Of a stretch of DNA of 64,000 nt, positions 1,206 through 18,300 are shown piece after piece. This DNA is from Fibrobacterota bacterium (GTDB lineage: Bacteria > Fibrobacterota > Fibrobacteria > UBA11236). A program made the position numbers and the translations under genes. Location of the stretch: assembly GCA_043753995.1 (NCBI GenBank), contig JAYUVP010000077.1:55-64054 (forward strand), written 5' to 3'. The notes beneath the pieces were generated by a model, which saw only the letters and a list, made by a program, of their open reading frames with translations, was not told the DNA's origin and did no database searches. Each line of letters starts with the position of its first letter. Positions within the stretch are counted from its first letter, which is position 1.

Positions 1206-1301
1206 GGTAATGTGTCAGCTACGGTACCCCACGGCCCGCCTCAGCTTTGCAGCCAAGACGGGCCTTCTCTGGGGGGCGTTTGTTCGTGCTGGTAGTCTCC
1301 T

Positions 1302-1721: not shown

Positions 1722-2095
1722 GTGGGCTCCAGAGGAAGGGCTTCGAGCAAGTGAGCGATGCCGCGAACTTCGGCATCAGTGAGGCGAATGAGGTCACCCG
1801 TGCGAGCCAGACCGCTTTCGCGTTTGATAGGGCCGAGCATCACCTTGTATAGGCGAGGCATGGGAGAGGCTACCGAAGACGAGGCGAGAACTTCGGGCGG
1901 ATGTCCAGCCGCCTGTTGCTCTCCGTCCTCGTCTGCGGTATTTTGGCCCGCCGCGTCTGGGGAGGGGGATGAGGACGGAGTTACAAGGTTTGCCCCACCC
2001 ACAGCCCCCACAGACGCAGCAGAGTTTGCCGCCAGGAAGGGAGCGGCTCCAGAGTCCGGCTCTTGGCCGGACGCCGGTTGGATTTTCTTGGCCAT
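1718..2095 (-). CDS. hypothetical phage protein (Ala/Ser/Pro-rich N-terminal half)
   Basis: 125 aa ORF translationally coupled (4-nt overlaps) between the major head gene and the downstream ORF. Confidence 0.4.
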   Translation of the reverse strand: MAKKIQPASGQEPDSGAAPFLAANSAASVGAVGGANLVTPSSSPSPDAAGQNTADEDGEQQAAGHPPEVLASSSVASPMPRLYKVMLGPIKRESGLARTGDLIRLTDAEVRGIAHLLEALPLEPT

Positions 2096-2098
2096 GGC

Positions 2099-3022
2099 TT
2101 AGGCAACCACGTTCGAGATGAGGAAGCCCGCGTCGGCGCCGAGGAGCTTGGGCACCGCGATTTCGGTATAGCGAACGATTTCGAGCTTGCCGTCTTCGGT
2201 GCGGAGGTCGACAAGATCGCTGTTGCGCTTGACAAGGGTGTATCCAAAGCTCGGCTCATATTCGTTACGTTCTTCTTGCGACGCCACGGATGGCACATAA
2301 GCCATGATGACATTATCGCCCCAGATATCTGAGAAGACATTTGCGTCAGAGCTCTTGATAGCTTCGCCCACCACAACCTTCATGCCAATGAGGGCGGAGA
2401 GAAGCTCTGCCGTGACAACGCCGGTTTGGGTGTACTTGATGCGATCCAGGACAGCAGGATGTTCGGAGATGGCCTCGAAGGCCGCTGCGCCAAAGGCGCA
2501 TAAATTGGGACGCTTACCGATGGCAGCGCGCACGGCGTTTCGGCCCGCACGGATATCCGCCAAGGGAGTGCTGGTGGAGGGGGCGGACCAGCACGTGGTG
2601 GTCGCAAGTGCGAGGCGATTGTTGGCAGAAAAGGTGGCGGTGTCCTGCAACAGGGTCGATACGATATTCTCAAGCTGAAGCTTGACCCCATCCTTGACCG
2701 TGCGGGCGGCGTACTTTTGCAGAGGCAGAGCCGCCTCCGCATCCTCGCGGTAGTCGATAGGATATTCGAGATCGTGCTCTTTGCAAACGAAAGAGACAGG
2801 GGTCATATCTTCGGGGTTGATGCGATTGCTCTTCCCACGCAGGGCTCGCTCGGTATTATAAAGCTTGAAAGCTTCCTTCCCGAAGCCGGGAATCGTACCT
2901 GCTTCTTTTTCCACGTACACGACGGGAAAGAGCGACTGGAAAATGGACTCAGCGTTGGTATAACCGCGAGTGAGTTGAGTGAGAACAGGGTCAGCGACCC
3001 GGAGATTGCTAAGACGACCCAT
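2099..3022 (-). CDS. Mu-like major head subunit (gpT family)
   Basis: 307 aa. Located immediately after the I-like protease/scaffold gene. Length and position match Mu T (recall). Confidence 0.7.
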   Translation of the reverse strand: MGRLSNLRVADPVLTQLTRGYTNAESIFQSLFPVVYVEKEAGTIPGFGKEAFKLYNTERALRGKSNRINPEDMTPVSFVCKEHDLEYPIDYREDAEAALPLQKYAARTVKDGVKLQLENIVSTLLQDTATFSANNRLALATTTCWSAPSTSTPLADIRAGRNAVRAAIGKRPNLCAFGAAAFEAISEHPAVLDRIKYTQTGVVTAELLSALIGMKVVVGEAIKSSDANVFSDIWGDNVIMAYVPSVASQEERNEYEPSFGYTLVKRNSDLVDLRTEDGKLEIVRYTEIAVPKLLGADAGFLISNVVA

Positions 3023-3025
3023 GGC

Positions 3026-4033
3026 TTATCCTTTGGAAGTGAGCTGCGCGGCGGCTTGCTCGTAGGTGATTTTTCGTTGAGCCGCAAAAGCGGTGATTTT
3101 ATTGTGGAGAGCCAAGCGTTCGGGATCGACATTCGCACCGAAGGTGTTGACTCCGCCGACAGGAAGGCCATCCAAAGCCGCAACGCGCGTCGCGATTTCT
3201 CCGCCAGGCGCAAACTTGGGAAGAGCGTTGATGAAAGCTTTGAGCACATCGACGGGCGATTCCCCTGTCGAAAACTTGGCGACGCCATCGAGAGCGGACA
3301 GAAGCTTTAGGCAGTGAGCCTTGCATTCATCATTGAGGCTGCCGTATTCGATACGTTCCGCGAGGAAGGTCTCAAAGGACAGCCTCCGCTGGGTAACGTC
3401 GTTGGATGAAATGCGCGCGCTCATCTCGGTCACTTGACTTGCGAAGGTGGCGACCTTGGTATTCGCCTCGACGAGCATTGCCTTGAGCTTCACAGGATCA
3501 TTCTCATCCGCGAAAGCGGCGACGGCAGGGATAACGGGTGCGGGGGTTTGCGGGGCTTCGCTCGTCGCAGGCGCTTGCACACCTCCAACATCGGAAGCCG
3601 CCGCCAGGGGCATGGGCACGAATTCAGCTTCAAACTTCACCACGGCCGTGCTGGCATTCGCAAAGGTGATAGGCTTGAGGCCAAGCACGGCGGGATGCTG
3701 TGCGCCGAGCAGCGATACGGCATAGAGATAGGGGCCTTTGCCGCCGAGGTCTTGCACGAACTCCGCTGACACCTTTTTGTATTCACCCTGCGCGATAGCC
3801 GCAACCATTGCGTCGCTGACTTGGCCGAAGGAAACTTTGAGAACGCCGTCATCGAACTTGCAGCCGTCGACCCAACCTAAGGCGGGGCCGCTTATCGCAT
3901 GGTCAGGAGTGACAGGCGCTTCGCTGAAGGTCGGATCGTAATTCGCGGCGACCTGTTCGCAGAAGCTGGCGGGGAAATCACCTTGAGGGTATATTCCCGG
4001 CTTGAAGATTTCGTAAAAAAGCTTTTGTGACAT
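3026..4033 (-). CDS. Mu I-like prohead protease/scaffold protein
   Basis: Track ORF 3026-4087. Probable ATG at 4033 (MSQKLFYEIFKPG). Size about 335 aa and an Ala-rich C-terminal scaffold-like region, as in Mu I/Z. Confidence 0.65.
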   Translation of the reverse strand: MSQKLFYEIFKPGIYPQGDFPASFCEQVAANYDPTFSEAPVTPDHAISGPALGWVDGCKFDDGVLKVSFGQVSDAMVAAIAQGEYKKVSAEFVQDLGGKGPYLYAVSLLGAQHPAVLGLKPITFANASTAVVKFEAEFVPMPLAAASDVGGVQAPATSEAPQTPAPVIPAVAAFADENDPVKLKAMLVEANTKVATFASQVTEMSARISSNDVTQRRLSFETFLAERIEYGSLNDECKAHCLKLLSALDGVAKFSTGESPVDVLKAFINALPKFAPGGEIATRVAALDGLPVGGVNTFGANVDPERLALHNKITAFAAQRKITYEQAAAQLTSKG

Positions 4034-4207
4034 TCGTTTCCGCTTTAGGTTGAAGACGCTGAAAGCGCATCGCCATCGTACGTGCAATAACCTAGCGGCC
4101 TAATCGTTCCGGGCGCAAAACCATTGGCCGCGCTCGTGGCTAAGGTTTGGCGCTATCCTATTAGGCGGCCATTTGGCCGCCTCTATCCCTAGTGCCGAAA
4201 GGGCTTT

Positions 4208-4645
4208 ATGCTCCCCTTAATTCCGTCAGGTCCTGAAAGCGCGTTTCTCCTTGCTGCGGCAAAAGCTGGCGGCATCGCGGGCATGTGTTTCGTGATGTTC
4301 TTTATCTCCATGAAGGTCTGGGTGAGGGTCCAAAAGCAGGACAGTGATCGCATCGACGTCCTGGTGAAAATGGCTGACGAAAGGTGGAATCAGAAATTCA
4401 TAGAGGACGCGCGAGAGCGAGAGCGGCAATACGGATTATTCAAGGGCCTGCTCGATAACGTCTCAGCCCACACGGGCGAACTCGCAAGCATCAATGCCAA
4501 ACTCGACAGCCAATCCCGCGACATCAACGACATCAACCGGGGAATGGGCGTCCTACACGGGCGAATCGATAAAGCGCTTGATAATCGCAGTTATAACGGC
4601 GTTCAAAGCGGCAGCCAACACGCCAGACAGCAGGAGAGAGCATGA
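4208..4645 (+). CDS. membrane-anchored coiled-coil protein (possible i-spanin/lysis accessory)
   Basis: N-terminal TM helix (AGGIAGMCFVMFFISMKVWV) followed by a coiled-coil-like region. Lies upstream of the TerS-like gene, as lysis genes do in Mu-like phages. Confidence 0.4.
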   Translation: MLPLIPSGPESAFLLAAAKAGGIAGMCFVMFFISMKVWVRVQKQDSDRIDVLVKMADERWNQKFIEDARERERQYGLFKGLLDNVSAHTGELASINAKLDSQSRDINDINRGMGVLHGRIDKALDNRSYNGVQSGSQHARQQERA

Positions 4646-4887
4646 GCCACGAAGGCACCATGCTGCGGGGCCGTATCGCGCAGACCGAACAAAAGCAGCG
4701 CATGCTTCGGGTCGAAGCAAAGTCTCTGATCGTCTCCATGCGACAAGACCTTGACCCTTACCAACCCAATCCCGCGAATCTCGCCACCGAGAGAATCATG
4801 ACGGCCGGAGTGCGCCTGCATGAGATCGCCACCGAACTGCGCGAAGTTGACGCCACGCTCATCGATATGCGGCAAGACCTTGGCTAA
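4642..4887 (+). CDS. hypothetical phage protein
   Basis: 81 aa ORF with 4-nt overlap to the upstream gene. No recognisable motif. Confidence 0.3.
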   Translation: MSHEGTMLRGRIAQTEQKQRMLRVEAKSLIVSMRQDLDPYQPNPANLATERIMTAGVRLHEIATELREVDATLIDMRQDLG

Positions 4888-5317
4888 GAAGCTTGCGTTT
4901 ATCGAAGAGGTTGAGCGGCGCTATGTGGTGATGAACCAGACCGCCGCAGCCATAGGCGCTGCGCTCAACATTTCCGAGCGCACCATCACCACATGGAAGG
5001 GTGAACAAAAGCAAGCCGGGAATGACTGGGACATTAAGCGAGCGAATCGGCTCGCCGCCATCGCATCTTTCCCGGACGAGTTAAATGAGCTTGCTCGCGA
5101 GCTTTGCCGCAGCATCAAAGAAGATCTCATGGAAGGCAAGCCCATTGACCAGAGTCGTGCGATTTTGTTTCGCGGCATACTCGGCAAAGCCAACAAAGAA
5201 AAAGAATTTGCTGACGCGGTGAAAAAGGAAGCTGCGGCGGAAGCCCCCAAGAAGCAAGAGATAAGCACCGACACCATCAAGCGCGTGCAAAGGGACATCC
5301 TTGGCATCCCTGGTTGA
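4820..5317 (+). CDS. Mu gp27-like small terminase/DNA-binding protein (DUF1804-like)
   Basis: Helix-turn-helix-like segment (AAAIGAALNISERTITTWKG) and position directly upstream of TerL. The true start may be TTG near 4882. Confidence 0.5.
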   Translation: MRSPPNCAKLTPRSSICGKTLAKKLAFIEEVERRYVVMNQTAAAIGAALNISERTITTWKGEQKQAGNDWDIKRANRLAAIASFPDELNELARELCRSIKEDLMEGKPIDQSRAILFRGILGKANKEKEFADAVKKEAAAEAPKKQEISTDTIKRVQRDILGIPG

Positions 5318-6701
5318 TCCCGCCGCCACAAAGGCGAGTTATTTCCTCCAATATCAATTGGATTGGTTAGCCGATAAAAAGCTGATCAAGATGGCCAAGA
5401 AAAGCCGACGCACCGGCTTTTCCTATACGCAAGCGTTTGAAGATGTCACCGACATTCTAAACGAGACCGAATACACCCCCGGTCGTAAAACCAAAAACGT
5501 CTGGTTCTCTTCAGCCGATGAAAGCGCATCCAAGGAATACATCCTCTACTGTGCCATGTGGTTCGAGGTCTATGACGCGGGGGCGCGAGAGCTCGGCGAA
5601 GTCGTCATTGATAGCGACCACAGCATCAAAGCCCTTTGCATCGAGGCCCCAAATGGCGGCCGCATTCATGCGCTCACATCAAACCCCAATCGATTTCGCT
5701 CCAAGGGTGGCAAGGTGGTGCTCGATGAATTCGCGCATCATAAAGACCAGCAAGCCATGTGGAAAGCGGCTTATGCCTCGGCAAGCATTTGGGGTTACGC
5801 CATCCGCATCATCTCCAGCGACAAAGGCAAGGGTTTATTCTACGAGTTCTGTGAGGACACGAAGGCAGGCAAGACCGGCTGGTCCCTGCACATCGTCACC
5901 ATTCACAAGGCCGTAGAGCAGGGGCTACTCGATAAAATACGCGGACGCGTGACCACCGCCGAAGAGAGACAGAACTGGCTCGACGAGCAGCGCCGCAATT
6001 GCCGCCTCGAATACATTTGGCTGGAAGAGTTCTGCTGCATCGCCCAAGATTCGGAATCAGCCTTCTTCAATCATGAACTGATTTCAAATTGCTGCCGAGA
6101 CGGCATACGGCAAAACCTCGTCGACGTCGACGAGGATATGTATGCAGGCTGGGATATTGCGCGCGTGAAAGATTTCGCAGTGATATGGACGATTGGCAAG
6201 CGCGACCGCGAAATCACTAGGAACATTCAAGCCTATGAAGACACTCGCTTCAAAATCCAAAAGGATTTTTTGCGCACCCTATTATGCCTGTCGCGCTTCC
6301 GGCGGCTCTGCCTCGATTATACCGGCATGGGTATTCCATTGGGCGAAGAGTTGCAAGAAGAGTTCGGTAAATACAAAGTCGAATGCGTGGGCTTTACCAA
6401 TCCAGTGAAAGAAGAGCTGGCTGTCGACATGAAGAGGGCCATGGAGGATCGTGATTTCATAATGCCCGACGATCCCATTGTCCGGGCGTCATTTCATTCC
6501 ATCCAAAAACTGGTGACGACAGCGGGCAATGTCCGCTTCGACGCTGAGTCGACAGAACAAATTGGCCACGCAGATCACTTCTGGGCCGCAGCCCTCGCCC
6601 ACCACGCAGCCAAGACCGCGCGCTCCGGCCCTCTCACCATTCGCAGCGGCGTGCGCCGCAGCATCGGCCGCATACTCCACGGCTACGGCCTCACTCGATA
6701 G
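5301..6701 (+). CDS. terminase large subunit (Mu gp28-like)
   Basis: 466 aa. Deviant Walker-A-like KKSRRTGFS near the N-terminus. Acidic nuclease-type C-terminal half. Followed immediately by the portal gene. Confidence 0.7.
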   Translation: MASLVDPAATKASYFLQYQLDWLADKKLIKMAKKSRRTGFSYTQAFEDVTDILNETEYTPGRKTKNVWFSSADESASKEYILYCAMWFEVYDAGARELGEVVIDSDHSIKALCIEAPNGGRIHALTSNPNRFRSKGGKVVLDEFAHHKDQQAMWKAAYASASIWGYAIRIISSDKGKGLFYEFCEDTKAGKTGWSLHIVTIHKAVEQGLLDKIRGRVTTAEERQNWLDEQRRNCRLEYIWLEEFCCIAQDSESAFFNHELISNCCRDGIRQNLVDVDEDMYAGWDIARVKDFAVIWTIGKRDREITRNIQAYEDTRFKIQKDFLRTLLCLSRFRRLCLDYTGMGIPLGEELQEEFGKYKVECVGFTNPVKEELAVDMKRAMEDRDFIMPDDPIVRASFHSIQKLVTTAGNVRFDAESTEQIGHADHFWAAALAHHAAKTARSGPLTIRSGVRRSIGRILHGYGLTR

Positions 6702-6710
6702 GACACAGCC

Positions 6711-8288
6711 ATGACGCACTTTTTCACATCATCCACCAGCCCCGTCGCGCGCTTCGGCGCGGCTCCTGTGCCCGTGCAGGCGGTGCCGGTCATAGGCGGC
6801 GAAATCGCTACGCGCGCCCGAGCCATGGGCGAATATGCCGGGTGGATGAATCAGCTCCCCAATCCCGATCCCATACTCAAGGCGCGAGGCATCGACATCA
6901 GCAAATACCGCGAGCTGCTTTCCGATGGCTCGCTCTCGGGAGCGGTGAAATCACGCAAGTCGGCTTTGCAGAGTATGGAATGGGGCCTCAATCGCGCGAA
7001 GTCGAAGTCGCGCAAAGCTCGCCTCGTCGAGGACCATTTGAAAACGCTCGACCATCACCGCTTGCGATCGCAAATGTTCGAAGCCTCACTCTTCGGTTAC
7101 GTGCCCATTGAAATTTGCAAGTGGGAAGTCATCAACGGCGTGCGCTTACCCACACGCATCGAACAGAAGCCTCAAGAGTGGTTTGCCTTTGACAATCAGA
7201 ATCGCCTGCTATTCAAGAGCAAGGACAATTGGCAAGGCGAAGTCGTTCCCGATTATCAATTCCTTTGCCCAACCAATGACGCGAGCTATGCCAACCCTTA
7301 TGGCATCGGCGACCTGTCGCGCTGCTTCTGGCCGTCGATATTCAAGCGCAATGGATATTCCTTCTGGGTGACCTTCGGCGAACGCTACGGCATGCCATGG
7401 GTTATCGGCAAACTGCCGCGTGGTTTGGACCCCAAGGAATACGACGCGCTCAATGACAGACTCGCAAGCATGGTGCAAGATGCCGTCGCTGTCGTTCCGA
7501 CCGATGCCGACGTGAACCTATTAGAAGCCGGCGGCAAATCGGGATCGGTGGACGTGTATAGCCGCCTCGTTGAATTTTGCAAAGCGGAAATGTCGGTGGT
7601 CATGCGCGGGCATGAAGGCGCGACCAATAGCACCGCAGGTAAGCTAGGCGGCAGCGACACCGCAACCAAGGTCATGGATGAGATTCGTGACGGTGACGCG
7701 CGCATGTGCGAGGCTGCATACAATCAACTCGTTCGGTGGATTTACAAACTGAACTGGCCCAGCGAAACCGACATTCCCACCTTCGACATTTGGGAGAAGA
7801 AGGATGTCGACCAGGAGCTTGCCACGCGCGATGCTACTCTCACCGAAAAGCTCGGTGTGAAATTCAAGAAGGTCTATATCTCCGAGGCCTACGACCTGCC
7901 TCAAGACCAATTCGACATCGAGGAGCCCAAGCCTACGGCGCCGCCCGCCGAGAACCCTGCGGCTAAGCCCGAGCCCGGAGCGGCGGTACCGCCCAAGGTC
8001 GTCGTCAAAAAGAAATTCGCATTGCCCGTCACCTTCGCTCAGCAAAGCGATGCCGCCATGGCGCTGGAGGATGCAGTGAATAGCATTCCCGCCGAAGAAC
8101 TTCAAAGCATGATGGATAAGCTTTTAAAGCCGGTTTGGAAACTCTTGCAAAAAGGCACCACGGCCGAGGAAATCCAAAAAGCCCTCGTCGAGGCTTATCC
8201 CTTGATGGACGATGACCAGATTCTCACCTTGATGACCCAACCCATTTTCGTCGCTGACATTGTCGGCGGGCTCTCGGCGCAGAAATAG
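6711..8288 (+). CDS. portal protein (DUF935, Mu gp29 family)
   Basis: 525 aa. Clean ATG at 6711 with an upstream AGGA. Position between TerL and the Mu-F-like gene. Confidence 0.75.
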   Translation: MTHFFTSSTSPVARFGAAPVPVQAVPVIGGEIATRARAMGEYAGWMNQLPNPDPILKARGIDISKYRELLSDGSLSGAVKSRKSALQSMEWGLNRAKSKSRKARLVEDHLKTLDHHRLRSQMFEASLFGYVPIEICKWEVINGVRLPTRIEQKPQEWFAFDNQNRLLFKSKDNWQGEVVPDYQFLCPTNDASYANPYGIGDLSRCFWPSIFKRNGYSFWVTFGERYGMPWVIGKLPRGLDPKEYDALNDRLASMVQDAVAVVPTDADVNLLEAGGKSGSVDVYSRLVEFCKAEMSVVMRGHEGATNSTAGKLGGSDTATKVMDEIRDGDARMCEAAYNQLVRWIYKLNWPSETDIPTFDIWEKKDVDQELATRDATLTEKLGVKFKKVYISEAYDLPQDQFDIEEPKPTAPPAENPAAKPEPGAAVPPKVVVKKKFALPVTFAQQSDAAMALEDAVNSIPAEELQSMMDKLLKPVWKLLQKGTTAEEIQKALVEAYPLMDDDQILTLMTQPIFVADIVGGLSAQK

Positions 8289-8290
8289 CC

Positions 8291-9829
8291 ATGGGCGTTA
8301 CCAAGCCCGACATTGCGGCCGCATTCAATATGCCGCCTCGCCGCGCTATCGAATTCTTCGAGAGCAAGGGCAATGTCATTAATTGGGATTGGTATGAGAC
8401 ATGGCAAACCGCGCATAGCAAAGCCTTCACCGTTGCCAAAGCGATGAAGGCTGAAATCCTTCAAGACTTTCACGACGGTGTGCGGGACATCTTCGTTAAG
8501 GGCGACACCTACGAAGAGTTTCGGCGTAAGCTTGAGCCCAAGCTAAAGGCTGCGGGATGGTGGGGAAAACAAAAGGTCCTTGGCCCACATGGTGAGGAAG
8601 ATGTACAACTCGGATCACCGTGGCGGCTAAAGCGCATTTATCAAACCAATGCTGCCACAAACTTTTCGGCGGGGCGATGGCGGCAGTTTGTTGAGAATGC
8701 GGATGCACGGCCCTACTTACAATACCTTGCCACCCTCGACGGTCGCACGCGTCCCACGCATCGTGCCATGCATGGCAAGGTGTTTCGCATTGACGATCCC
8801 ATTTGGAAATATCTCTTTCCGCCGAACGATTGGGGTTGCCGTTGCCGCGTGCGGGCCTTGAGCCAGGCCGATGTCGAGCGCATGGGATTGATCGTCGAGG
8901 ATGGCAGCAAAGCCATCACTCACGAAGAGCGCCTGGTCTCGGCCAAGACAGGTGAGGTGAAGCCCGTCGCTGTGTACACCGACCCAGCAACCGGCAAGCG
9001 CATGGCCACGGGTGTGGGCTGGTCCTATAACCCGGGCATGAAGGACTTCGAGCCCGACCTTTCGCGCATTACCCCGGCCATTGCGAAAGCATATCGCAAG
9101 GAGGTGGCTGCCGCCGGGCTGACCCAGCGTTATCCCGTGACCAGCTATGGCGACATCGAAACTCTTCTTAAGGCCTATGACAAAGAGACTCCCGGCATTT
9201 TTCAGTTGGGCTTTAAGTCGATTGAAATCACCAATGCCAAATACATTATGGCCACCAATGCCATCGGTGAAATCAAATTGTCGCGACGCATTTCAGCCAG
9301 CGGATTCAATGGCGCAGAAAATCTATTGCAAGCGCTTCGCAAAGTTTCGTTGCGAGAGGCTTTGAGCTTTGACGAGGAATACGCCATCGAAGCGCTATGG
9401 CATGAGATCGGGCATTGCCGCATGCAAGGCTGGATGAAAGTTGCGAAGGGCAGCGTGTCCCAAACCGTGATGGAGACACTCAATCAGTGGGTTGCTCGGC
9501 ACACCTATTCTGACTTCTTGGCTCAGCTGGGAGGCAAAGCTGCGCACCAAGAAAAGATTTTGGCCGAGGGTGTGGGCTATCAGCGGTGGGTGGCGAATCT
9601 GCGCACAGCCATCAGCGCTTTGGGGGTGAATGAGCAAACCGCGCTCGGTGTTATTAAGCCGCTGGTATTCAGGCTGCCTTGGACCAAGCTTCAAGGGGCC
9701 GTGGCTTACGCGTTGGCACGGTTGTCAAACAAAGATGAGGCGATGATTAAGGCCGTGCTGGGAGACCTGTCACAATACCCAGGAACCTATACCGCCTTGT
9801 TAAAGGCCCTATTTAAAACCGAGGGTTAA
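8291..9829 (+). CDS. Mu F-like head morphogenesis protein (gp30 family)
   Basis: Contains the Phage_Mu_F signature region ...LATLDGRTRPTHRAMHGKVFRIDDPIWKYLFPPNDWGCRCRVRAL. Confidence 0.8.
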   Translation: MGVTKPDIAAAFNMPPRRAIEFFESKGNVINWDWYETWQTAHSKAFTVAKAMKAEILQDFHDGVRDIFVKGDTYEEFRRKLEPKLKAAGWWGKQKVLGPHGEEDVQLGSPWRLKRIYQTNAATNFSAGRWRQFVENADARPYLQYLATLDGRTRPTHRAMHGKVFRIDDPIWKYLFPPNDWGCRCRVRALSQADVERMGLIVEDGSKAITHEERLVSAKTGEVKPVAVYTDPATGKRMATGVGWSYNPGMKDFEPDLSRITPAIAKAYRKEVAAAGLTQRYPVTSYGDIETLLKAYDKETPGIFQLGFKSIEITNAKYIMATNAIGEIKLSRRISASGFNGAENLLQALRKVSLREALSFDEEYAIEALWHEIGHCRMQGWMKVAKGSVSQTVMETLNQWVARHTYSDFLAQLGGKAAHQEKILAEGVGYQRWVANLRTAISALGVNEQTALGVIKPLVFRLPWTKLQGAVAYALARLSNKDEAMIKAVLGDLSQYPGTYTALLKALFKTEG

Positions 9830-10107
9830 TTGCTGCGATCGAAAAGCACATCATGCGAAAGCAAGCCTTCACGGAATAACGCGTCCTCAATGCGGGCCGC
9901 ATACTCTTCGGCCTTCGCATCTTCGCCTCTGACTTGGTATAGCCGGACAATGTCGCCTAGCGCCGTGTCTTCGTCCCGTGGGAATGAGCGAATGGTCTCT
10001 TCGGGCGCATCGCCAAAGAGTTCTTCCAGCTCGCTACGGGTGGGTTTGTGGTCCCAGAGGTTTTCCATTGCCCGAATAATGTACCCCTCGAATGGCGGAC
10101 GCGCCAA
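9826..10107 (-). CDS. small acidic hypothetical protein on the opposite strand of the late operon
   Basis: 93 aa, TTG start in track. Fits exactly between F and G on the antisense strand. Coding status unverified. Confidence 0.3.
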   Translation of the reverse strand: MARPPFEGYIIRAMENLWDHKPTRSELEELFGDAPEETIRSFPRDEDTALGDIVRLYQVRGEDAKAEEYAARIEDALFREGLLSHDVLFDRSN

Positions 10108-10721
10108 GGAGTTTCAGGGACAACCCTGAAACGGCCTTTAAACGCCACAAAAACCCCATGCTGAAAAACATCACCGACAAGGCCGTGCTCGACCATCTCG
10201 CCAAGGTGGCGGCCCAAGTGCAGGACACCGCCCCGCTCATGGTGGAGCTATCAGGCGACCTGCATGCAGCCGTCGAGGAGAATTTTGAGGCACAGGGCCC
10301 AGGTTGGGCTCCGCTTGCCAAGAGCACCATCGCTGAGCGGCAGCGCAAGGGATATTGGCCGGGCAAGATTCTAAACCGTCATGGCGGCGCGGGGCTGGTG
10401 GGCAGCATCACCGCCGACAGCGATGTCAACACGGCCACGGCGGGCACGAATAAGCGCTATGCCCAGGCCCTCAACGATGGTGCGGAAATACATCAGGCGG
10501 CGCGCTCGAATCTGTATTCGAGCAAGCGCAAGACCAAGGGGAAGGGCAAGGGGCAGTTTACTGCGGGGACGGGGACTGAGACTGCGGGGGGCAAGGGTAA
10601 GTCGAGCTTCGGGGAGCGGGTGATTAAAATCCCGGGGCGAGCCTTTATGCTGCTGCACCCTCAGCAATTGCAGAGGGTGATGGATACGGCTACGGCGTGG
10701 CTGAAAAAAACGGTGGGATGA
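10092..10721 (+). CDS. Mu G-like virion morphogenesis protein
   Basis: Gene order F then G as in Mu. Probable true start MLKNITDK at about 10158. Gly/Lys-rich C-terminal region. Confidence 0.6.
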   Translation: MADAPRSFRDNPETAFKRHKNPMLKNITDKAVLDHLAKVAAQVQDTAPLMVELSGDLHAAVEENFEAQGPGWAPLAKSTIAERQRKGYWPGKILNRHGGAGLVGSITADSDVNTATAGTNKRYAQALNDGAEIHQAARSNLYSSKRKTKGKGKGQFTAGTGTETAGGKGKSSFGERVIKIPGRAFMLLHPQQLQRVMDTATAWLKKTVG

Positions 10722-10798
10722 AGTCTTTAAACAAATGGGCTGAGTGACAAGAAAACCGACACTGCAAGACGCTGTCGCTACGTTACTTCCGTGACATT

Positions 10799-11677
10799 TT
10801 GGTTTTACCTTTTCGGCCAATGCTATCTGAAAAAGTGTATCGATTAGGCAGCCGAATCCTACGGAAGAAAATCTTTTATTTGGAATGGGCTGGGACCTCT
10901 ATCCTTGCTTTGCTTGGTTTTTATGCGGACGCTAATTCTGTTTTCGGCGGCATCAATGCAAAAAGTGATTGGCTTTCAGCGGGTGGTTTAATTGTCTTTG
11001 GAAGTTTGAATATTCTCCTTATTCAAGGCTTCACTGTATACCGTATTCGGTATAGACGAGCCCAGCGGGCATACGAATCGATACATCTCGTGGCGGAAGA
11101 GATTCGCAATTTGCGGGGAGATTCTCGCCTTAGTCGCGAGACATGCCTAAGGGCAATTCACAAAGTTTGCTTCCGGCACATTGACGCCATCATGACAGAT
11201 TTCGTTGGCTTTAAAACCTGCATTACCCTGAAGTACGTGAAATCTGGCCTATTGGTTGCCTTGCGTTCAGAAAATCAAGCTGGACGTTATTCCACTCCGG
11301 AGAATGCAGCCGACAACTTAATTTTTTCCAACTTCACCCTACACGACGGCAAATACAAGGTTATGCATGTTACGGACATCGAAAATCAACCTTGCATGGA
11401 AAAGCATTTTGGAGTTGCCTTTGATTCCGTGCTGACTCGGGCCAAGACGAAATATCGTTCTTTTTTAGCCCTGCCGATTCGAAAGAGCAACTATACTCAA
11501 GGCGAGTTGTCCATGAGGCAGACCATAGGTATCTTAGGAATCGATTCTAGCCGTCCTTGTGCATTTGAGGATCTAGAGCCAGGGGATTACCAAGCCCTTT
11601 ATTCTGTTGTCGACATTTTAGCTGAAGCAGTCCTATACTTGCAGGGCTGTCCGGAGGTCGAAAATGCCCCAAGTTAA
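10799..11677 (+). CDS. two-TM membrane protein with C-terminal GAF-like domain (prophage moron)
   Basis: Two hydrophobic helices (residues about 33-52 and 58-82), then an approximately 200-aa soluble domain. Its C-terminal signature ...SFLALPIRKSN..IGILGIDSSRP..F...D...L..V.DILAEAV is typical of GAF folds. The gene is markedly AT-richer than its flanks. Confidence 0.5.
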   Translation: MVLPFRPMLSEKVYRLGSRILRKKIFYLEWAGTSILALLGFYADANSVFGGINAKSDWLSAGGLIVFGSLNILLIQGFTVYRIRYRRAQRAYESIHLVAEEIRNLRGDSRLSRETCLRAIHKVCFRHIDAIMTDFVGFKTCITLKYVKSGLLVALRSENQAGRYSTPENAADNLIFSNFTLHDGKYKVMHVTDIENQPCMEKHFGVAFDSVLTRAKTKYRSFLALPIRKSNYTQGELSMRQTIGILGIDSSRPCAFEDLEPGDYQALYSVVDILAEAVLYLQGCPEVENAPS

Positions 11678-11873
11678 CGCTGGCTCGATTGTGCGCACCG
11701 ATTTTTCAGTTGAAGAAAAGCGTGCAATCCACAGGTTCGTTTCGGAACGGCTGGCTGAAATCAAAAGCACGATTGAATTTGGTCCCATTTCAATCAGTAT
11801 TAACGGCAAGACCGTAGTGATGTATAACTATGAAGACAGCTTGGACGTCGTCGCCGCAGCGAATCTAGACTAG
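11664..11873 (+). CDS. small hypothetical protein, translationally coupled partner of the TM-GAF gene
   Basis: 69 aa. Overlaps the upstream gene by 14 nt. Same low GC. Confidence 0.35.
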   Translation: MPQVNAGSIVRTDFSVEEKRAIHRFVSERLAEIKSTIEFGPISISINGKTVVMYNYEDSLDVVAAANLD

Positions 11874-11910
11874 ACCGGGCTTAGCCAGCGCTTCGAGCCG
11901 CAAGCTCTCC

Positions 11911-12309
11911 TTAATCCTTCAGAATCAAAACCGTGAAGAGCACTCCGCCCGCCGTCAAGGCCAAGGTGAGGACCTGAACAAAGGCCATAGTTTCAAGAGC
12001 CTTTGCCATCCTATCCAATTCCGGCTTTATTGATTCAGGCTGTGGGCAAACTACAGTCTGGTCGCGCAGAATCGTTTTACTGGTCTCAACCGGCCTTGTC
12101 GTCACTGTGTACTTATCGCCATTTTTGTCCACGCGCACATCAGTTTTTGCATTCAAGGTTTTCGCCGCACGCGCGCCATCTCCCGTCGTGTCCCCTTCAA
12201 GGCGCTCCACCGTCGAATCAGGTGCGCAGCACTTAACCACCTCGGCAGCCTGACAATACCCAGCCACCACAATCAAACCGGACGCAATGGCTAAGCCCTT
12301 TAAACGCAT
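11911..12309 (-). CDS. exported hypothetical protein with C-terminal membrane anchor
   Basis: Signal peptide MRLKGLAIASGLIVVAGYC and a C-terminal hydrophobic helix. Confidence 0.45.
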   Translation of the reverse strand: MRLKGLAIASGLIVVAGYCQAAEVVKCCAPDSTVERLEGDTTGDGARAAKTLNAKTDVRVDKNGDKYTVTTRPVETSKTILRDQTVVCPQPESIKPELDRMAKALETMAFVQVLTLALTAGGVLFTVLILKD

Positions 12310-12345
12310 TTCTATCCCTTTGAAATTGTTATACCGCCAACCACC

Positions 12346-12891
12346 TCACCAATTCGCCGTGTCCTTTTTGGCCTCGCCAATTGCCGCCCAAAGGGTCGCC
12401 TCCAGCAATCCCGATTCGGTCTTTGCTTTTTCCTGAAGGTCGGTCCAGGTCTTTTGGTTTTGTTGCTTCTTCAGCCCCTCGGGGATACTTGGCGCCGACG
12501 TCAGGAATCCAACACTCCCCCAAGCCGACTTGCCTTCGTGGCGAAAGTCCCGGAATTCATAACGGTATCTCCCGTCCTTCACATCCACGATGAACGTGTA
12601 GTTGACGTATCCCCTTATTCCATCTGAACCCATAAAAACCACGGGCTCATACTCGAAGTTTGCTTTGCCTATGATTCGGCCTCGCTGTGGATTCTTGTAC
12701 TTAATGACTTCATTCGAAGAACCAAAAGTCAGCGCAGCCCACTCTTCGATAACGCCAAACAAAGAATCCTTGCTCATTCCAGGAACTTGCGCGACACCGC
12801 GAAACTCTAGTGGTGGCGCAGAATCCTTCTCGCCGCCAAATGCAACAGCAGCAATGAACCCGCAAGCAATTACCAAGCCTTTTAAACGCAT
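12346..12891 (-). CDS. exported hypothetical protein (DUF4468-like?)
   Basis: Signal peptide MRLKGLVIACGFIAAVAF, nearly identical to that of the neighbouring gene. RBS AAAAGG 12 nt upstream. Confidence 0.45.
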   Translation of the reverse strand: MRLKGLVIACGFIAAVAFGGEKDSAPPLEFRGVAQVPGMSKDSLFGVIEEWAALTFGSSNEVIKYKNPQRGRIIGKANFEYEPVVFMGSDGIRGYVNYTFIVDVKDGRYRYEFRDFRHEGKSAWGSVGFLTSAPSIPEGLKKQQNQKTWTDLQEKAKTESGLLEATLWAAIGEAKKDTANW

Positions 12892-12902
12892 CCTAAAACC
12901 TT

Positions 12903-13190
12903 TTGATTGTGTTTTAACGCGACCGAACTCGTCCCGAAAATCCCCGCAGAGATTCAGGCTTCAGCGCCCAGAAGGACAGCCGTTGCCCCTGTGTTCTCCG
13001 TAAGTTACTCAGGGCATCCCTTACACCAAAAACATAGCCCCAAGGACGGGGCGCCAAGGAAAGAAACCCTCATGGCTTCCGCTTCTCAGAAGGCGCGCCA
13101 GCGGCGCGATCGTTTGGCACGTTCTGCGGCTTTACTTGTGAAATGTTTTGAGTTGCGATTGATTTTGTGTAATCCACCAAACGCGTCAGC
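12903..13190. repeat. two copies of a TTGATT(T)TGTGT..AACGCG motif flanking the 3' end of the repressor gene (operator/enhancer or alternative element-end candidate)
   Basis: Copy 1 at 12903-12928 (ttgattgtgttttaacgcgaccgaac). Copy 2 at 13159-13189 (ttgattttgtgtaatccaccaaacgcgtcag). A third site at 12933-12951 (cccgaaaatccccgcagag) is similar to the AAAAACGCGAAAG core. Confidence 0.35.
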
Positions 13191-13630
13191 CTCCGTCGAA
13201 ACTGCTCTTCCCGCCCCTCAGCTCGGAGCTCCCGCAACTCATCAATCGCCATCCCAATTAGCTCAGCTCGAACCGATTCAGAAAACCCAGGGCCATCTCC
13301 CAATAGTTCAAGAACCGTTTTTTGAGCCAAAAGCAGATCGTCGCCACGAGTCCTTTTTGACTTGAATACGACAGGCTGTTGAGGAGGGGGAGCTTCGCCC
13401 CCATGAAACCATTCGCTAAAAACACGAAATTGCTCAGGCGAAAGACTCTTATTTAGCGTTTGCCACTGAATTCCTCGCTTTCTCCAATTAACGATAGCGG
13501 AGTCTGTGACTCCCAAAGCTTGAGCCAGAGCTCGATTAGAGCCGTGGCCTTTCGTGATTTGCAGCGAATCTTTTAGCTGCTCAAGCGCTTCATCAATTGT
13601 TCTCAAAGTCAAAACCCAAAAAAAGTTCAA
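13070..13630 (-). CDS. Mu c-like repressor (HTH DNA-binding)
   Basis: HTH segment RALAQALGVTDSAIVNWRKRG. Divergent from ner/A/B, as the Mu c repressor is. TTG start in track, so the true start may be internal. Confidence 0.55.
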   Translation of the reverse strand: MNFFWVLTLRTIDEALEQLKDSLQITKGHGSNRALAQALGVTDSAIVNWRKRGIQWQTLNKSLSPEQFRVFSEWFHGGEAPPPQQPVVFKSKRTRGDDLLLAQKTVLELLGDGPGFSESVRAELIGMAIDELRELRAEGREEQFRRRLTRLVDYTKSIATQNISQVKPQNVPNDRAAGAPSEKRKP

Positions 13631-13631
13631 T

Positions 13632-13668
13632 TTTCACTTGTGAATGTTTCACAAGGTGTCTATTATGG
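13632..13668. promoter_or_regulatory. divergent c/ner promoter-operator region with TTCACTTGTGAA palindrome
   Basis: Perfect palindrome ttcacttgtgaa at about 13634-13645, followed by a related half-site tgtttcacaagg. It sits between the divergent repressor and ner-like genes. Confidence 0.45.
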
Positions 13669-13895
13669 TGGTCGTGAGACAACCTAAGACTAAACCTAAG
13701 AAAGCGCCGAGCACTCTCCAGCTTTTGATTGCAGCTCGGTCAATATCTGGAATTTCGGCGACCCAATTTGCCGAATCGCTTGGCGTAACTAGGCAAGCTG
13801 TCCTTGAGACCGCAAAAAATCCGCGGAAGTCCCAGCGAATCGCATCAGCAATCCGACGCTTCATTTCACTTCATGTCTCGGCAGAGGTAGCATGA
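13644..13895 (+). CDS. Ner-like small DNA-binding regulator
   Basis: 83 aa with HTH (ISATQFAESLGVTRQAVLET). Immediately upstream of the transposase and overlapping it by ATGA. The start may be the internal ATG at 13665. Confidence 0.55.
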   Translation: MFHKVSIMVVVRQPKTKPKKAPSTLQLLIAARSISGISATQFAESLGVTRQAVLETAKNPRKSQRIASAIRRFISLHVSAEVA

Positions 13896-15952
13896 CCCGC
13901 TCCACTGCCCTAAAAGTTTCCTCGGCATCACCAGCTGCCAAAACCTCGACCCCAACATCCTGTCCGATGCTGTCGACTCGCGAGGTCGCCGAATTGATTG
14001 GCGTAAGCGATGAGCGGAATCTGCGCCGCGACCTACGTCGAGGGCGCTTCGAGTTCACCTGTGAACCCACTTCAAACGGCCTTCAATACCGCATTGCGCT
14101 GACCTCGCTCCCGCTCGACGCCCAGCTCCGCTACTGGCAAGCCCGTGGCGTGGCCATGCCATCCACCGTCACGCCAGTCGCGCCCACGCTTTCGCCCAGC
14201 CAGGAAATTGAAGTCGAAATGAGCATTCTAGCCCGCGCGCCCATGCACGCGCGCAAAAAGGCCGACAAGTATCTCGCCATTCTCAATGCGGCCGAGGGCC
14301 TCAAGGGTCATGAGCTGCGCGGCTTCATCACCGCCTGGAACAAGAGCAACCCGACTTTCCAAACCAGCTATCAGCGCGTGCTGCAAGCTCGTAAGGATTA
14401 TAGCGAAGGCGGTGTCGCGTCCCTACTCGCTCGCTATGGCTGGCGTGCCGGTGAAACCGCCGTGCCCGACGCCCACTTTCAATTCTTCCTCACCCTCTAT
14501 CTCAAAGAGGGTGGCGCTCCGCTCTATACCTGCTGGGTCGCGACCATGGGGCATTTCGGCAAGACCGACGCCACCATCACCATCGACAATTATCCCAGCC
14601 ATTATGCCTTTCAACGCCGCTTGGAGCGGGAAGTCCCGCTCCCCGCCATCGTCAAGGCCCGCGAGGGTGAAGCCATCTATGCCCGCCGCTTCGGCAGTTT
14701 CATCGAACGCGACCTGAGCGCGATCGCCCCCGGCGATTGTTGGATTTCTGATCACGCTCAAATCGACGTGATGATGATTGCGCCCGATGGCAAATTCGTG
14801 CGCCCATGGATCACGGCATGGCGCGATTTTAAGTCGGGAGCTTGGCTCGGCTGGTATGTTCACGCGCAAGCGCCCAACTCCGATCACATTTTCCACGCCT
14901 TTCATTTAGCCGCCATCGAGCATGGCCTACCGACCGACATCCTGATTGATAATGGCAAGGACTATCGCTCGAAAGATTTCGCCGGCGGACGTAAGCCTAT
15001 AGACGAGGTGCAAGCCCGCTCCCTCGTCGGCGCTCTCGGTATCTCCGCGCATTTCGCACGGCCATACAATGCCCGCGCCAAGACCATCGAACGCGATTTC
15101 CACACGCAAAAACTTTGGTTCTCAAAATTCATGCGCGGCTATACCGGCGGCAGCGTCACCGAAAAGCCCGAAGCACTAGAGCGCGACAAGTCTTCGGGCT
15201 CATGCATGCGCCTCGGCGATTTCATTGCCTTGTTCGACACCTTCGTCAAAGACGTGCTCAATGCCATGCCCTCCTGGAGCAAGGTCAATCAAGGCTTACC
15301 GCGTCAGGCTTATTTCGATGCGCATTGCCCAGCCCGCCGCCGCGTCAGCCCCGAAGCTCTAGCCCTTTTCTGCATGCGTACCGACGGCAACTTCGCCATC
15401 GGTCGCAATGGCATCCACGACAGCAAGCACGGCGTGACTTATTGGGATGAGCGCCTAGTCGCCATGGCTGGCCGCACACGCTGCTATCTGCGCCGCGACC
15501 CGCGCAATCACTTAGAGGCATGGGTCTATAACGACGCCACCAACGAATTGATTTGCAAAGCCCACGCCATCGAATCACCTGCGGCCCTGGTGCGCACCGA
15601 AGCCGATCGCCACACCTTGCAGCGCGAAACCAAGCGGGCAGCAACGCAGACCAAGATCATCAACTCATTCACGAAGCAGGGTGTGCAGCCTCCACCCGCC
15701 GACATCATCGCGGCTATGGCTTCTGGCGCAAAAATTCTGACGGCGAAAAATGCGCCAGTGCCTGCGCGTGAAATTCCCGAGCAAATCAGCATCACCAAAA
15801 TGGATCACGCTATCGCAGCCGAGAAGCGCATGCAGCAAACCGGCAAGCATGACCCTGCGGCTGTTCGCCCGATGATGCAGCCCAAGAAAAAGAAAGAGTC
15901 GCTCTCGTTATTCGCCAGCGACTTGCCGCCGACAAAGCGCACGGCCAGCTAG
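13892..15952 (+). CDS. Mu-type DDE transposase (MuA family)
   Basis: 686 aa. N-terminal Mu DNA-binding-like domain. rve/DDE core region (...WISDHAQIDVMMIAPDG...). Followed by a MuB-like ATPase. Confidence 0.85.
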   Translation: MTRSTALKVSSASPAAKTSTPTSCPMLSTREVAELIGVSDERNLRRDLRRGRFEFTCEPTSNGLQYRIALTSLPLDAQLRYWQARGVAMPSTVTPVAPTLSPSQEIEVEMSILARAPMHARKKADKYLAILNAAEGLKGHELRGFITAWNKSNPTFQTSYQRVLQARKDYSEGGVASLLARYGWRAGETAVPDAHFQFFLTLYLKEGGAPLYTCWVATMGHFGKTDATITIDNYPSHYAFQRRLEREVPLPAIVKAREGEAIYARRFGSFIERDLSAIAPGDCWISDHAQIDVMMIAPDGKFVRPWITAWRDFKSGAWLGWYVHAQAPNSDHIFHAFHLAAIEHGLPTDILIDNGKDYRSKDFAGGRKPIDEVQARSLVGALGISAHFARPYNARAKTIERDFHTQKLWFSKFMRGYTGGSVTEKPEALERDKSSGSCMRLGDFIALFDTFVKDVLNAMPSWSKVNQGLPRQAYFDAHCPARRRVSPEALALFCMRTDGNFAIGRNGIHDSKHGVTYWDERLVAMAGRTRCYLRRDPRNHLEAWVYNDATNELICKAHAIESPAALVRTEADRHTLQRETKRAATQTKIINSFTKQGVQPPPADIIAAMASGAKILTAKNAPVPAREIPEQISITKMDHAIAAEKRMQQTGKHDPAAVRPMMQPKKKKESLSLFASDLPPTKRTAS

Positions 15953-16969: not shown

Positions 16970-17203
16970 ATGGGATTCTCACAATCGATATCCGACAAGC
17001 CGAAATACTTTGCTGTCGAATACAAAAACAGCAAAGACCTTTTCTGCGTCACGCCTATGCAGGCGCACACGCAAGGCAATGCGCTCCGCAGCTTTAACAT
17101 CCTGGGCGTGGGGACTATGACATGCATTCGCGAAATCGACGAGCGCGAATACAATCAACTGCGCATGGAAAGCGAAGTGCGGGCCCAAGGGGGGAAAGGA
17201 TGA
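16970..17203 (+). CDS. hypothetical early protein
   Basis: 77 aa, first gene after MuB. No motif recognised. Confidence 0.35.
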   Translation: MGFSQSISDKPKYFAVEYKNSKDLFCVTPMQAHTQGNALRSFNILGVGTMTCIREIDEREYNQLRMESEVRAQGGKG

Positions 17204-17439
17204 AGGCGAAGACGATTCGTGCCACGCGGCTGGCGCTTGAAAAAGTGCACAGCACTGGCAAATATCCTTTCACTCCGCTGGGCGACATGCTGCTATTGCA
17301 TGGCCTTATTTGCCCGCCTTTCGGCGAGAAAAATTTGTCCAGACTGACGACGGATGGCGTCAAAATATTGGTCAAGCTGAATTTGCGTCTGCATGGTAGG
17401 GCTCGTTTCAGGTTTTGCCTGCAAGAGGCTTCAGCATGA
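17200..17439 (+). CDS. hypothetical early protein
   Basis: ATG at 17200 preceded by GGGGAAAGGA. 4-nt overlap with the upstream ORF. Chosen over the long antisense ORF 17115-18026. Confidence 0.3.
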   Translation: MKAKTIRATRLALEKVHSTGKYPFTPLGDMLLLHGLICPPFGEKNLSRLTTDGVKILVKLNLRLHGRARFRFCLQEASA

Positions 17440-17876
17440 GCAACGCCATCCAACTCAGAATCATTCACGCGGTGAAACGTGAGGCCGGAATCAAGGAAGG
17501 CGAATACCGCGACCTCTTGCGCGATATGTTCGATCGCGGTTCCAGCTCTGACCTTACTGAGAAGCAGGCAGATGAATTCATTACTCATCTGCGTGTGCTC
17601 GCTGGCCAACAAACCGGCGGCAAGGGCGTAAACCCGCACACGCATCTCGACAATCGACCGGGCTTTGCTTCTTCGAAGCAGCTCGGCATGCTCGAAGGAA
17701 TGTGGTCTGAGGTTTCCGTCGCAGAGAACAAACGCAAAGCCCTCGAATCCTTTTTGCGCGGGCGTTTCCGCATCAATGGCCTCGCTTGGATTCGCGAGCA
17801 TGAGGTGCGAAAGATTCACACGGCGATAAGCGCCATGCAGGCGCAGAAAAAGAAAGGAGTGGCCCATGTCGCATGA
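17436..17876 (+). CDS. GemA-like regulatory protein (Mu gp16, DUF1018 family)
   Basis: Probable start MSNAIQLRIIH. Size and sequence are typical of the GemA family (recall). Confidence 0.5.
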   Translation: MSNAIQLRIIHAVKREAGIKEGEYRDLLRDMFDRGSSSDLTEKQADEFITHLRVLAGQQTGGKGVNPHTHLDNRPGFASSKQLGMLEGMWSEVSVAENKRKALESFLRGRFRINGLAWIREHEVRKIHTAISAMQAQKKKGVAHVA

Positions 17877-18300
17877 AACACTTGAAGCTCTTATCGACGA
17901 AAAGCTCACCTTGAAGCGCAATCGCGCCATGCTCGACGAGCGCGAAGAAGAAGTCAATGCCAAGCTCGATCGCTTTTTCAAGCACGACGCGCCCGCCGAG
18001 CAGCTCAATACGCCTTTCGGATCCATCGTTCGGGTCGTGCATGAGGATCGGGTGCTTGCGAACGCGGCGTTTCCCCTTGCGGCTGAGGCCTTACATGATC
18101 AGTTCAATGAATACTTCAATATCGATGTGGTCATTGTTAGGCCCACGACCAAGTGCCTGCAAATGGCCGCCGATAAGCGCAACCCGATTTATCAGTTGAT
18201 GTATGACCATCTCATCGTAAAACGGACGGTCTTTTATACGGCCATGCCGGCGAGCCCGTTGCAATACACGGAAGGCCCTAGCCATGCGAGGCGGTCATGA
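17866..18300 (+). CDS. hypothetical early protein with N-terminal coiled coil
   Basis: 144 aa. Overlaps the neighbouring genes on both sides by a few nucleotides. Confidence 0.4.
   Translation: MSHETLEALIDEKLTLKRNRAMLDEREEEVNAKLDRFFKHDAPAEQLNTPFGSIVRVVHEDRVLANAAFPLAAEALHDQFNEYFNIDVVIVRPTTKCLQMAADKRNPIYQLMYDHLIVKRTVFYTAMPASPLQYTEGPSHARRS

Follow-up and report, generated by a model that had tools for sequence, protein, structure and literature searches.

A stretch of 64,000 nucleotides from a Fibrobacterota bacterium (contig JAYUVP010000077.1; the whole stretch is referred to here as the window) carries, within a Mu-like prophage, a low-GC cassette of two genes at positions 10,799 to 11,873 that is an undescribed, compact and mobile two-gene membrane-GAF module with an association with defence islands. 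The larger gene encodes a protein with two predicted N-terminal transmembrane (TM) helices and a cytoplasmic domain of GAF fold, and the smaller, tightly coupled to it, encodes a short acidic protein. By analogy with characterised systems we tentatively read the pair as a toxin-antitoxin-like or abortive-infection module that is complete in itself and moves horizontally, an interpretation to which we give slightly less than an even chance. The genes and the signals associated with them are:

10722..10819, + strand: intergenic leader, from the stop codon of a Mu-G-like gene to the probable ATG of the large gene (from the sequence)
10820..11677, + strand: large gene, 285 residues (P0001; from the list of open reading frames (ORFs), public assemblies and the starts of homologues)
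11610..11639, + strand: weak sigma-70-like promoter match, TCGACA-18-TATACT, 10/12 (consensus scan)
11653..11657, + strand: GGAGG Shine-Dalgarno sequence of the small gene, lying within the large gene, 6 nt before the small-gene ATG
11664..11873, + strand: small gene, 69 residues, acidic (isoelectric point (pI) 5.0), predicted cytoplasmic (ORF list and downstream homologues)

The two genes are co-directional and overlap by 14 nt, as described in an earlier note on this DNA made from the sequence alone. The note began the large gene at a TTG at 10799, and a longer ORF does open there and end at the same position, 11677; the ATG at 10820 is the more likely start, because two public assemblies call a protein of 285 residues and the homologues begin at this position. 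Homologues of the large protein are found with E values from 1e-120 to 1e-30 and in every locus a homologous small ORF comes next, and we therefore regard both as real genes; the possibility that they are chance ORFs was dropped because both are conserved.

The G+C content of the cassette is 0.459 (0.458 at third codon positions of the large gene), and it is the lowest-GC 1,075-bp stretch in the window (0.3rd percentile). It is thus as AT-rich as had been noticed from the sequence, but the background of 58–60% given at that time describes only the G gene next to it (0.608); across the phage genes the values run from 0.54 to 0.62, and the mean of the window is 0.537. A composition distinct from that of the phage genes around it is a trait of phage morons that the cassette shows. 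A consensus scan confined to sigma-70 types found neither a promoter nor a terminator in the leader, and no terminator-like site 3′ of the cassette on the + strand. The scan returned two sigma-70-like sites where 2.4 are expected by chance, and the match at 11610–11639 is no better than chance. Transcription may continue into the cassette from the late operon, or may start at a promoter that is not of the sigma-70 type. No Rfam family was found within 9500–14000 and no tRNA within 1–24000.

The large protein can be divided into three parts:

10871..11038, + strand: two-helix TM hairpin with an outside loop of ~10 residues, codons 18–73 (hydropathy, AlphaFold2 (AF2), charge and conservation)
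11039..11131, + strand: basic juxtamembrane helix (YRIRYRRAQR...) continuous with the second TM helix (TM2), codons 74–104 (AF2 and conservation in 36 sequences)
11132..11647, + strand: cytoplasmic GAF-fold domain, codons 105–276

Hydropathy peaks at residues ~18–40 and 51–73, and two hydrophobic segments are present in 20 of the 20 family members checked, including the weaker first helix (TM1) of the window protein, which falls just below the threshold of the 20-member scan but is visible in the hydropathy profile. There are six lysine or arginine residues before TM1, one in the loop, and eight after TM2, a distribution that predicts an N-in/C-in topology with the C-terminal domain in the cytoplasm. 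The AF2 model was made from a 36-sequence family alignment, as a 2-sequence alignment gave a mean predicted local distance difference test score (pLDDT) of only 49; it has a pLDDT of 89.1 and a predicted template-modelling score of 0.85, with helices at 17–43, 48–100 (TM2 at 48–73 running on as a cytoplasmic helix to 100) and 106–129, followed by a beta-sheet domain that closes with a long C-terminal helix at 254–276. The arrangement is that of a GAF fold, an antiparallel beta-sheet packed on helices with the N- and C-terminal helices on one face, and a Foldseek search gave 21 matches at E<1e-3, every one of them a GAF; the top structural matches include the cAMP-bound GAF of Lcd1 (5w10), phosphodiesterase GAFs and bilin-binding GAFs. 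The membrane topology and the GAF fold proposed in the earlier note are thus both upheld by prediction, the fold by the agreement of AF2 and Foldseek, although no Pfam family, and so none of the GAF, GAF_2 and GAF_3 models, matches the large protein at E<=1. As modelled, the C-terminal domain is a GAF at the level of the fold, with nothing further fused to it. A search of PDB sequences with the 36-sequence profile of the large protein at E<=10 returned TM noise only, and neither protein of the pair has a match in Pfam, NCBIfam, PHROGs or PADLOC.

Conservation extends over both halves of the large protein. Within the membrane and juxtamembrane region, G61 in TM2 is conserved and H89 and R96 in the juxtamembrane helix are near-invariant among the 36 sequences, and N64 in TM2 is nearly invariant in a 12-sequence alignment; in the GAF domain the invariant or near-invariant residues are K138, R149, E161, R207, Y212, P219, G237, D242 and D265.

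In all of the approximately 20 distinct loci with downstream sequence, an ORF of 64–88 residues directly follows the large gene on the same strand, either overlapping it by 14 nt (in the window and in the loci L001 and L024), by 4 nt or by 1 nt, or separated from it by a gap of no more than 47 nt. The small proteins align nearly gap-free and share a pattern of two helices followed by 'I-x-L-E-K-D', 'Y/F-Q-I-x-I-x-S' and 'E-E-L..I...L'; the small protein of the window matches the L001 partner with a BLASTP E value of 1e-7. None of the 18 partners scanned has a Pfam match other than scattered single-member noise, and a profile of the partners recovered only TM and low-complexity noise from PDB sequences. 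The partner has a pI of 4.4–6.8 in 17 of 18 cases and the large protein one of ~9–9.7 in most members, and in a charge-hydropathy plot the partner looks folded in 19 of 20 cases. The more alike two large proteins are, the more alike are their partners, with a strong correlation over 20 loci (pairwise identities; Mantel r 0.84, permutation p 2e-4), and both genes therefore travel and diverge together. No other gene, whether a cyclase, a nuclease or any recurrent third gene, is conserved beside the pair. We note that one family member (L027, positions 7700–8872, and L028, positions 474–1345) is split into ORFs of 99 and 204 residues and has an intact 79-residue partner; it is a possible frameshift or pseudogene.

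An exhaustive search with HMMER through 1.84 billion cluster representatives identified only 48 proteins at E<1e-3, which makes the family a very rare one, and a word-index homologue search with a 4-sequence profile gave 23. All full-length members have 264–363 residues and one common architecture; all come from metagenomes or metagenome-assembled genomes (MAGs), and wherever they are annotated it is as 'hypothetical'. The named carrier genomes, which come from a locus scan run with a 6-sequence alignment, are Fibrobacteria/Fibrobacteres MAGs, where the closest relatives of the window cassette are found, together with one Prolixibacteraceae (Bacteroidota) MAG, and the distribution is patchy. 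Taken with the DUF4423 protein among the host genes of the window, the position of these closest relatives suggests a Fibrobacterota host; the GTDB species representatives scanned did not include the genome of the window itself. The cassette is AT-richer than its flanks by 3–21 GC points in 13 of 13 loci, in host genomes of 33–69% GC (for example, 46% against 65% for the surroundings in L009, and 49% against 69% in L001); because low GC is a property of the whole family and not just of the window, it fits a horizontally circulating accessory cassette. Searches of IMG/VR (2.9 M contigs), INPHARED (50,697 phage records) and PLSDB (72,556 plasmids) found no relative. The window prophage is the sole phage carrier seen, every other member being chromosomal, and a prophage is an exceptional carrier, not the usual home of the family. 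The description of the module as phage-borne, which the earlier note had offered, therefore does not hold as a general property.

The neighbourhoods of the cassette in other loci range from clear defence islands, through suggestive neighbours, to clean insertions:

L017: clear defence island, with the cassette between a complete Wadjet JetABCD and a pair formed by HipA and an SNF2 helicase
L011: clear defence island, with a HepT-like RNase, GMT-wHTH, DUF5131 and a type I HsdM
L024: clear defence island, with an MmeI-type restriction-modification system (type IIL), a helicase and T5orf172
L029: clear defence island, with a GmrSD-type restriction system (type IV), Eco57I and T5orf172
L015: suggestive neighbour, an AAA_21 ATPase
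L006: suggestive neighbour, HNH_2
L012: suggestive neighbour, a tyrosine integrase
L009, 9968–11036: cassette inserted cleanly between asd and lysA
L014, 9986–11160: cassette inserted cleanly between addA and addB
L026, 8001–9155: cassette inserted cleanly between an rluD-like pseudouridine synthase gene and a pyrD cluster

The cassettes of L009 and L014 lie 12–19 GC points under their flanks. Co-occurrence with other prophages or with defence islands had been suggested as a check, and the pair does recur in several defence islands, but no other prophage or phage carrier was seen. As a candidate exclusion or defence module, the pair is undescribed and compact, as supposed, and has several defence-island loci, but it is not characteristically carried by phages and its part in defence is one that we infer. 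There is no cyclase, CD-NTase, SMODS or CARF/SAVED partner, and no other signal generator, in the window or in ~15 informative neighbourhoods. This agrees, for the window, with the earlier statement that no catalytic domain, cyclase or nuclease is evident there; the comparison with Pycsar and CBASS effectors made alongside it is unsupported, because no cyclase accompanies the pair.

A Mu-like transposable prophage takes up the left third of the window; in it, and to its right, the following blocks can be recognised:

54–4087, - strand: GH108 lysozyme, Mu gp36, cement protein, major capsid protein and a scaffold-sized ORF
4208–10721, + strand: DUF1804, large terminase, Mu portal, Mu F and a Phage_tail_S/Mu-G-type protein
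11911–13630, - strand: two secreted or lipoprotein-like genes and a helix-turn-helix repressor
13644 to ~20000, + strand: ner-like gene, MuA transposase, MuB-like AAA ATPase and Gam
from ~21 kb: host genes (DUF4423, hybrid histidine kinase)
22358–23281, - strand: host DUF4423 protein (E 2e-17)

The cassette begins 98 nt past the stop codon of the Phage_tail_S/Mu-G-type gene (family match E 3e-17) and is upstream of the repressor/ner/MuA/MuB block; because it stands between the two, it is inside the prophage and at a module junction, which is where it had been placed from the sequence. The rightward packaging and head block and the leftward repressor block converge at this point, and an independent Logan assembly has the identical junction, with portal, F, G, the cassette and a 132-residue gene in succession. 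No related phage was found, either by megablast of 16.5 kb against phages or with MuF patterns against IMG/VR, and there are no convincing Mu-type terminal inverted repeats around the cassette, the repressor or the host junction.

The prophage layout is non-canonical. The late head genes and lysozyme at 54–4087 (- strand) diverge from the terminase-portal-F-G block at 4208–10721 (+ strand), the repressor/ner/MuA/MuB/Gam block is on the right and adjoins host genes at ~21 kb, and the window contains no tail genes; this arrangement could be native, could reflect internal inversions by intramolecular transposition, or could be that of a defective prophage. The two secreted or lipoprotein-like genes downstream of the repressor, at 11911–12309 and 12346–12891 (both - strand), encode one protein of 132 residues with a C-terminal TM segment and another of 181 residues with a DUF4468/TBP-like fold (E 3e-16) that matches phrog_4002. 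They have a common 40-nt 5′ end, 80% identical, encoding the signal peptide MRLKGL-IA-G, and are plausibly lysogenic-conversion or exclusion genes themselves. A third copy of this signal-peptide-like repeat (68% identical) is held by an ORF of 303 residues without a Pfam match that lies antisense in the early region (17115–18026, - strand). Antisense between Mu F and G there is an acidic ORF of 93 residues (9826–10107, - strand), which the independent assembly also calls as a gene and which has no match in Pfam, PHROGs, PADLOC or NCBIfam. Near the border between prophage and host, at 20670–20724, is a tandem direct repeat of TTTCGCTGGTTT... (25 nt, 76% identical, 30-nt spacing), which could be two paired end sites for binding of the transposase.

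We favour a toxin-antitoxin-like or abortive-infection function for the pair because its architecture, gene order, coupling, charge pairing, mobility and defence company match those of precedents. Both of the experimental precedents that we found for a TM+GAF protein of ~250–280 residues without an enzyme domain, SpoIISA and toxFtsL_D9, are toxins of two-gene modules. By analogy with them we infer toxicity, neutralisation by the small protein, a trigger and an anti-phage effect, and the pair would operate as follows. The 285-residue protein would insert into the inner membrane through its two-helix hairpin, with the basic juxtamembrane helix and the GAF domain facing the cytoplasm, and the GAF domain and helices would mediate dimerisation or oligomerisation, as in SpoIISA and toxFtsL; the assembled protein would then damage the envelope, through either membrane integrity or divisome function. 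Translational coupling would yield the small acidic protein in fixed proportion, and this protein would bind the GAF domain or the juxtamembrane region and keep the effector inactive, until loss or displacement of the partner unleashed it. The trigger might be a halt in host synthesis, something made by an infecting phage, or a ligand bound in the pocket of the GAF domain. When carried on a prophage, the module might stabilise the lysogen, abort infection by other phages, or both.

Several observations weigh against this interpretation. The folded appearance of the partner is unlike the natively disordered SpoIISB, and the partner has no recognisable DNA-binding domain for autoregulation. Neither the 48 representatives nor the 23 word-index matches include a RefSeq protein of 281 residues, the length of toxFtsL_D9. 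About one third of the loci are plain insertions amid housekeeping genes, without a defence neighbour. Finally, the near-invariant charged residues K138, R149, E161, R207 and D242 would be just as much at home in the genuine small-molecule pocket of a sensor.

The last of these points is central to a different explanation, the signalling moron that the earlier note had allowed for, in which the GAF domain binds a cytoplasmic metabolite or nucleotide and the membrane protein withholds or frees the small one, which would serve as the output by regulating some host or phage target. GAF domains are classically small-molecule sensors, our best structural matches include cAMP-bound, phosphodiesterase and bilin-binding domains, and the near-invariant polar residues form a ring that also takes in Y139 and Y212; a partner that appears folded rather than like a disordered antitoxin, and the several loci without defence neighbours, are also in keeping with such a role. 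However, the acidic partner of 64–88 residues matches no DNA-binding or enzymatic family and no output mechanism is apparent, and housekeeping modules do not usually differ by 3–21 GC points from the genome at every locus, nor are they usually found in restriction or Wadjet islands, beside integrases or in prophages. Moreover, the only characterised proteins of TM+GAF architecture that we found are toxins, PelD having an extra degenerate GGDEF domain. We therefore consider a signalling role improbable.

It is more doubtful still that the large protein is a membrane effector activated by a second messenger, in the style of CBASS, Pycsar or type III CRISPR systems, with its cyclase encoded elsewhere and the small protein as an accessory. 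The combination of TM helices and a nucleotide sensor does follow the logic of PycTM, Cap14/15, Cam1 and TM-STING, and the GAF fold can bind cyclic nucleotides (5w10 is among the top matches), but the neighbourhoods described above contain no candidate cyclase, and the sole conserved neighbour, of ~70 residues, is too small to be one. There are weak PADLOC matches to '2TM effector' models (E 0.005–0.05), but no PADLOC model matches the window proteins, and in the family the matches are isolated, all at E>0.001, beyond significance thresholds; because each occurs in only one of 36 members and with a non-significant E value, they probably reflect hydrophobic composition.

A further explanation is that the cassette is a phage-specific accessory, either a membrane superinfection-exclusion factor or a lysis-timing factor, which would be transcribed after G as part of the late operon and would have no role outside phages. 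In support of this, the cassette is co-directional with the late gene G and 98 nt downstream of it, no terminator being predicted in the interval; a likeness of SpoIISA to holins has been pointed out; and a structurally similar protein with two TM helices and a GAF-like domain, gp43 of Gordonia phage Finkle, together with a 58-residue ORF, adjoins the integrase of a temperate phage. However, neither IMG/VR nor the INPHARED phages nor PLSDB contain the family, and the composition of the cassette is unlike that of the phage's own genes; because all other members are chromosomal, the function cannot be phage-specific, and we regard this explanation too as very improbable. A role as a cyclic-nucleotide sponge in anti-defence was also considered and is unlikely, as the family is chromosomal, membrane-anchored and found in defence islands.

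If the pair is indeed a toxin-antitoxin or abortive-infection module, it would be the third sequence-unrelated instance of a toxin built from membrane helices and a GAF domain, after SpoIISA and toxFtsL, and would suggest that this is a recurrent design rather than a Bacillus curiosity. It would also provide a new family of small inhibitors and a way to learn which signal the GAF domain perceives in toxins of this kind; for SpoIISA, the physiological trigger has yet to be found. A more specific proposal, which we consider possible but on the whole unlikely, is that the pair is a new compact abortive-infection system in which a GAF-gated two-helix effector is restrained by a small folded inhibitor, with either a ligand of the pocket formed by K138, R149, E161, R207 and D242 or an inhibitor-displacing phage protein as the trigger, and that SpoIISA, toxFtsL, Finkle gp43 and this pair belong to a broad, hitherto unrecognised 'TM-GAF' class of suicide effectors spread over Bacillota, Bacteroidota, Fibrobacterota and actinophages. 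If it is a sensor instead, it would be an unusual GAF receptor without an output, having a 70-residue protein as its sole partner. The pair is also an unannotated component of defence islands in Fibrobacterota and Bacteroidota, phyla in which few defence systems have been tested, and in the window a transposable prophage has picked it up.

Among known systems, PycTM, Cap14/Cap15, TM-STING and Cam1/Csx23 combine a short TM region with a cytoplasmic ligand sensor and no enzyme, and are often found in defence islands. The cassette differs from them in that its sensor is a GAF domain and not a cyclic-nucleotide-binding, SAVED, STING or CARF domain, and in that no cyclase is encoded in its operon or neighbourhood. 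PelD, the cyclic di-GMP receptor of the Pel polysaccharide machinery, is likewise membrane-anchored with a cytoplasmic GAF domain, and its structure 4etx is among the Foldseek matches. It has, however, four TM helices, its degenerate GGDEF domain binds cyclic di-GMP, and it belongs to a seven-gene pel operon, with nothing comparable at the cassette.

The resemblance to Gordonia phage Finkle (ON456347; L030, 30621–31589) involves gp43, a protein of 251 residues (UTN92957.1) annotated 'membrane protein', and gp44, of 58 residues (UTN92958.1), encoded after it. Like the large protein of the cassette, gp43 starts with two hydrophobic helices and ends in a GAF-like domain, the two proteins match in Foldseek at E 6.5e-6 with template-modelling scores of 0.46/0.52, and they have in common the motif Y-x-T-[FY]-I-x-x-P-[IV] ... 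G-x-L-x-[IF]-D; a small ORF follows in both, and the Finkle genes adjoin the tyrosine integrase gp45 of this temperate actinophage. The hhalign comparison, however, gives only E 0.016 and a probability of 2.9%, and gp44, a basic protein, shows no relation to the partner family. We conclude that the structural resemblance is real but that sequence support is insufficient to call gp43 and gp44 homologues of the pair.

The toxin toxFtsL_D9 of Gelidibacter mesophilus (WP_027127282.1) has 281 residues, is annotated 'GAF; FtsL; transmembrane' and is a predicted membrane dimer, and with PanA (WP_027127283.1) it forms a validated two-gene toxin-antitoxin system (NetFlax; Ernits et al. 2023; PMC10440598). 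It acts slowly, causing filamentation with delocalisation of the divisome and blocked divisome assembly but no depolarisation, and is neutralised by PanA (PMC10440598). The likeness to our pair, which was compared by description only, consists of the TM+GAF architecture and a Bacteroidota host, as in part of the family; it differs in that the antitoxin is of the Panacea type (DUF4065), and there is no DUF4065 gene adjacent to the cassette in any locus.

Judged by architecture and arrangement, the best precedent, which the earlier note had not named, is a membrane toxin-antitoxin system of the SpoIISA/SpoIISB type and not the nucleotide-signalling effectors. SpoIISA, of 248 residues, has three TM helices and a GAF domain, disrupts the membrane in the manner of a holin, and requires its TM part, its GAF part and oligomerisation; SpoIISB, of 56 residues and encoded directly downstream, wraps around the GAF dimer and neutralises it, a second promoter (PB) inside spoIISA raises transcription of the antitoxin, and the spoIIS locus adjoins prophage PBSX in B. 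subtilis (PMC6562991). Homology in sequence is not detectable: the family profile aligned to 3o6q_A with hhalign reaches a probability of 0.06%, and there is no Pfam match to SpoIISA_toxin (PF14171) or SpoIISB_antitox (PF14185). There are other differences, in that our protein has two TM helices rather than three and a long basic juxtamembrane helix, the partner is larger (64–88 residues), folded-looking and unrelated to SpoIISB, and the hosts are Fibrobacterota and Bacteroidota rather than Bacilli. The likeness to SpoIISA/SpoIISB(/SpoIISC) of Bacillus (PDB 3O6Q) is thus one of design: an N-terminal TM region with a cytoplasmic GAF domain in a protein of ~250 residues without an enzyme domain, a promoter-like match at 11610–11639 that is positionally analogous to PB, though at chance level, and, in arrangement only, a small gene directly downstream of the TM+GAF gene at all of the approximately 20 loci.

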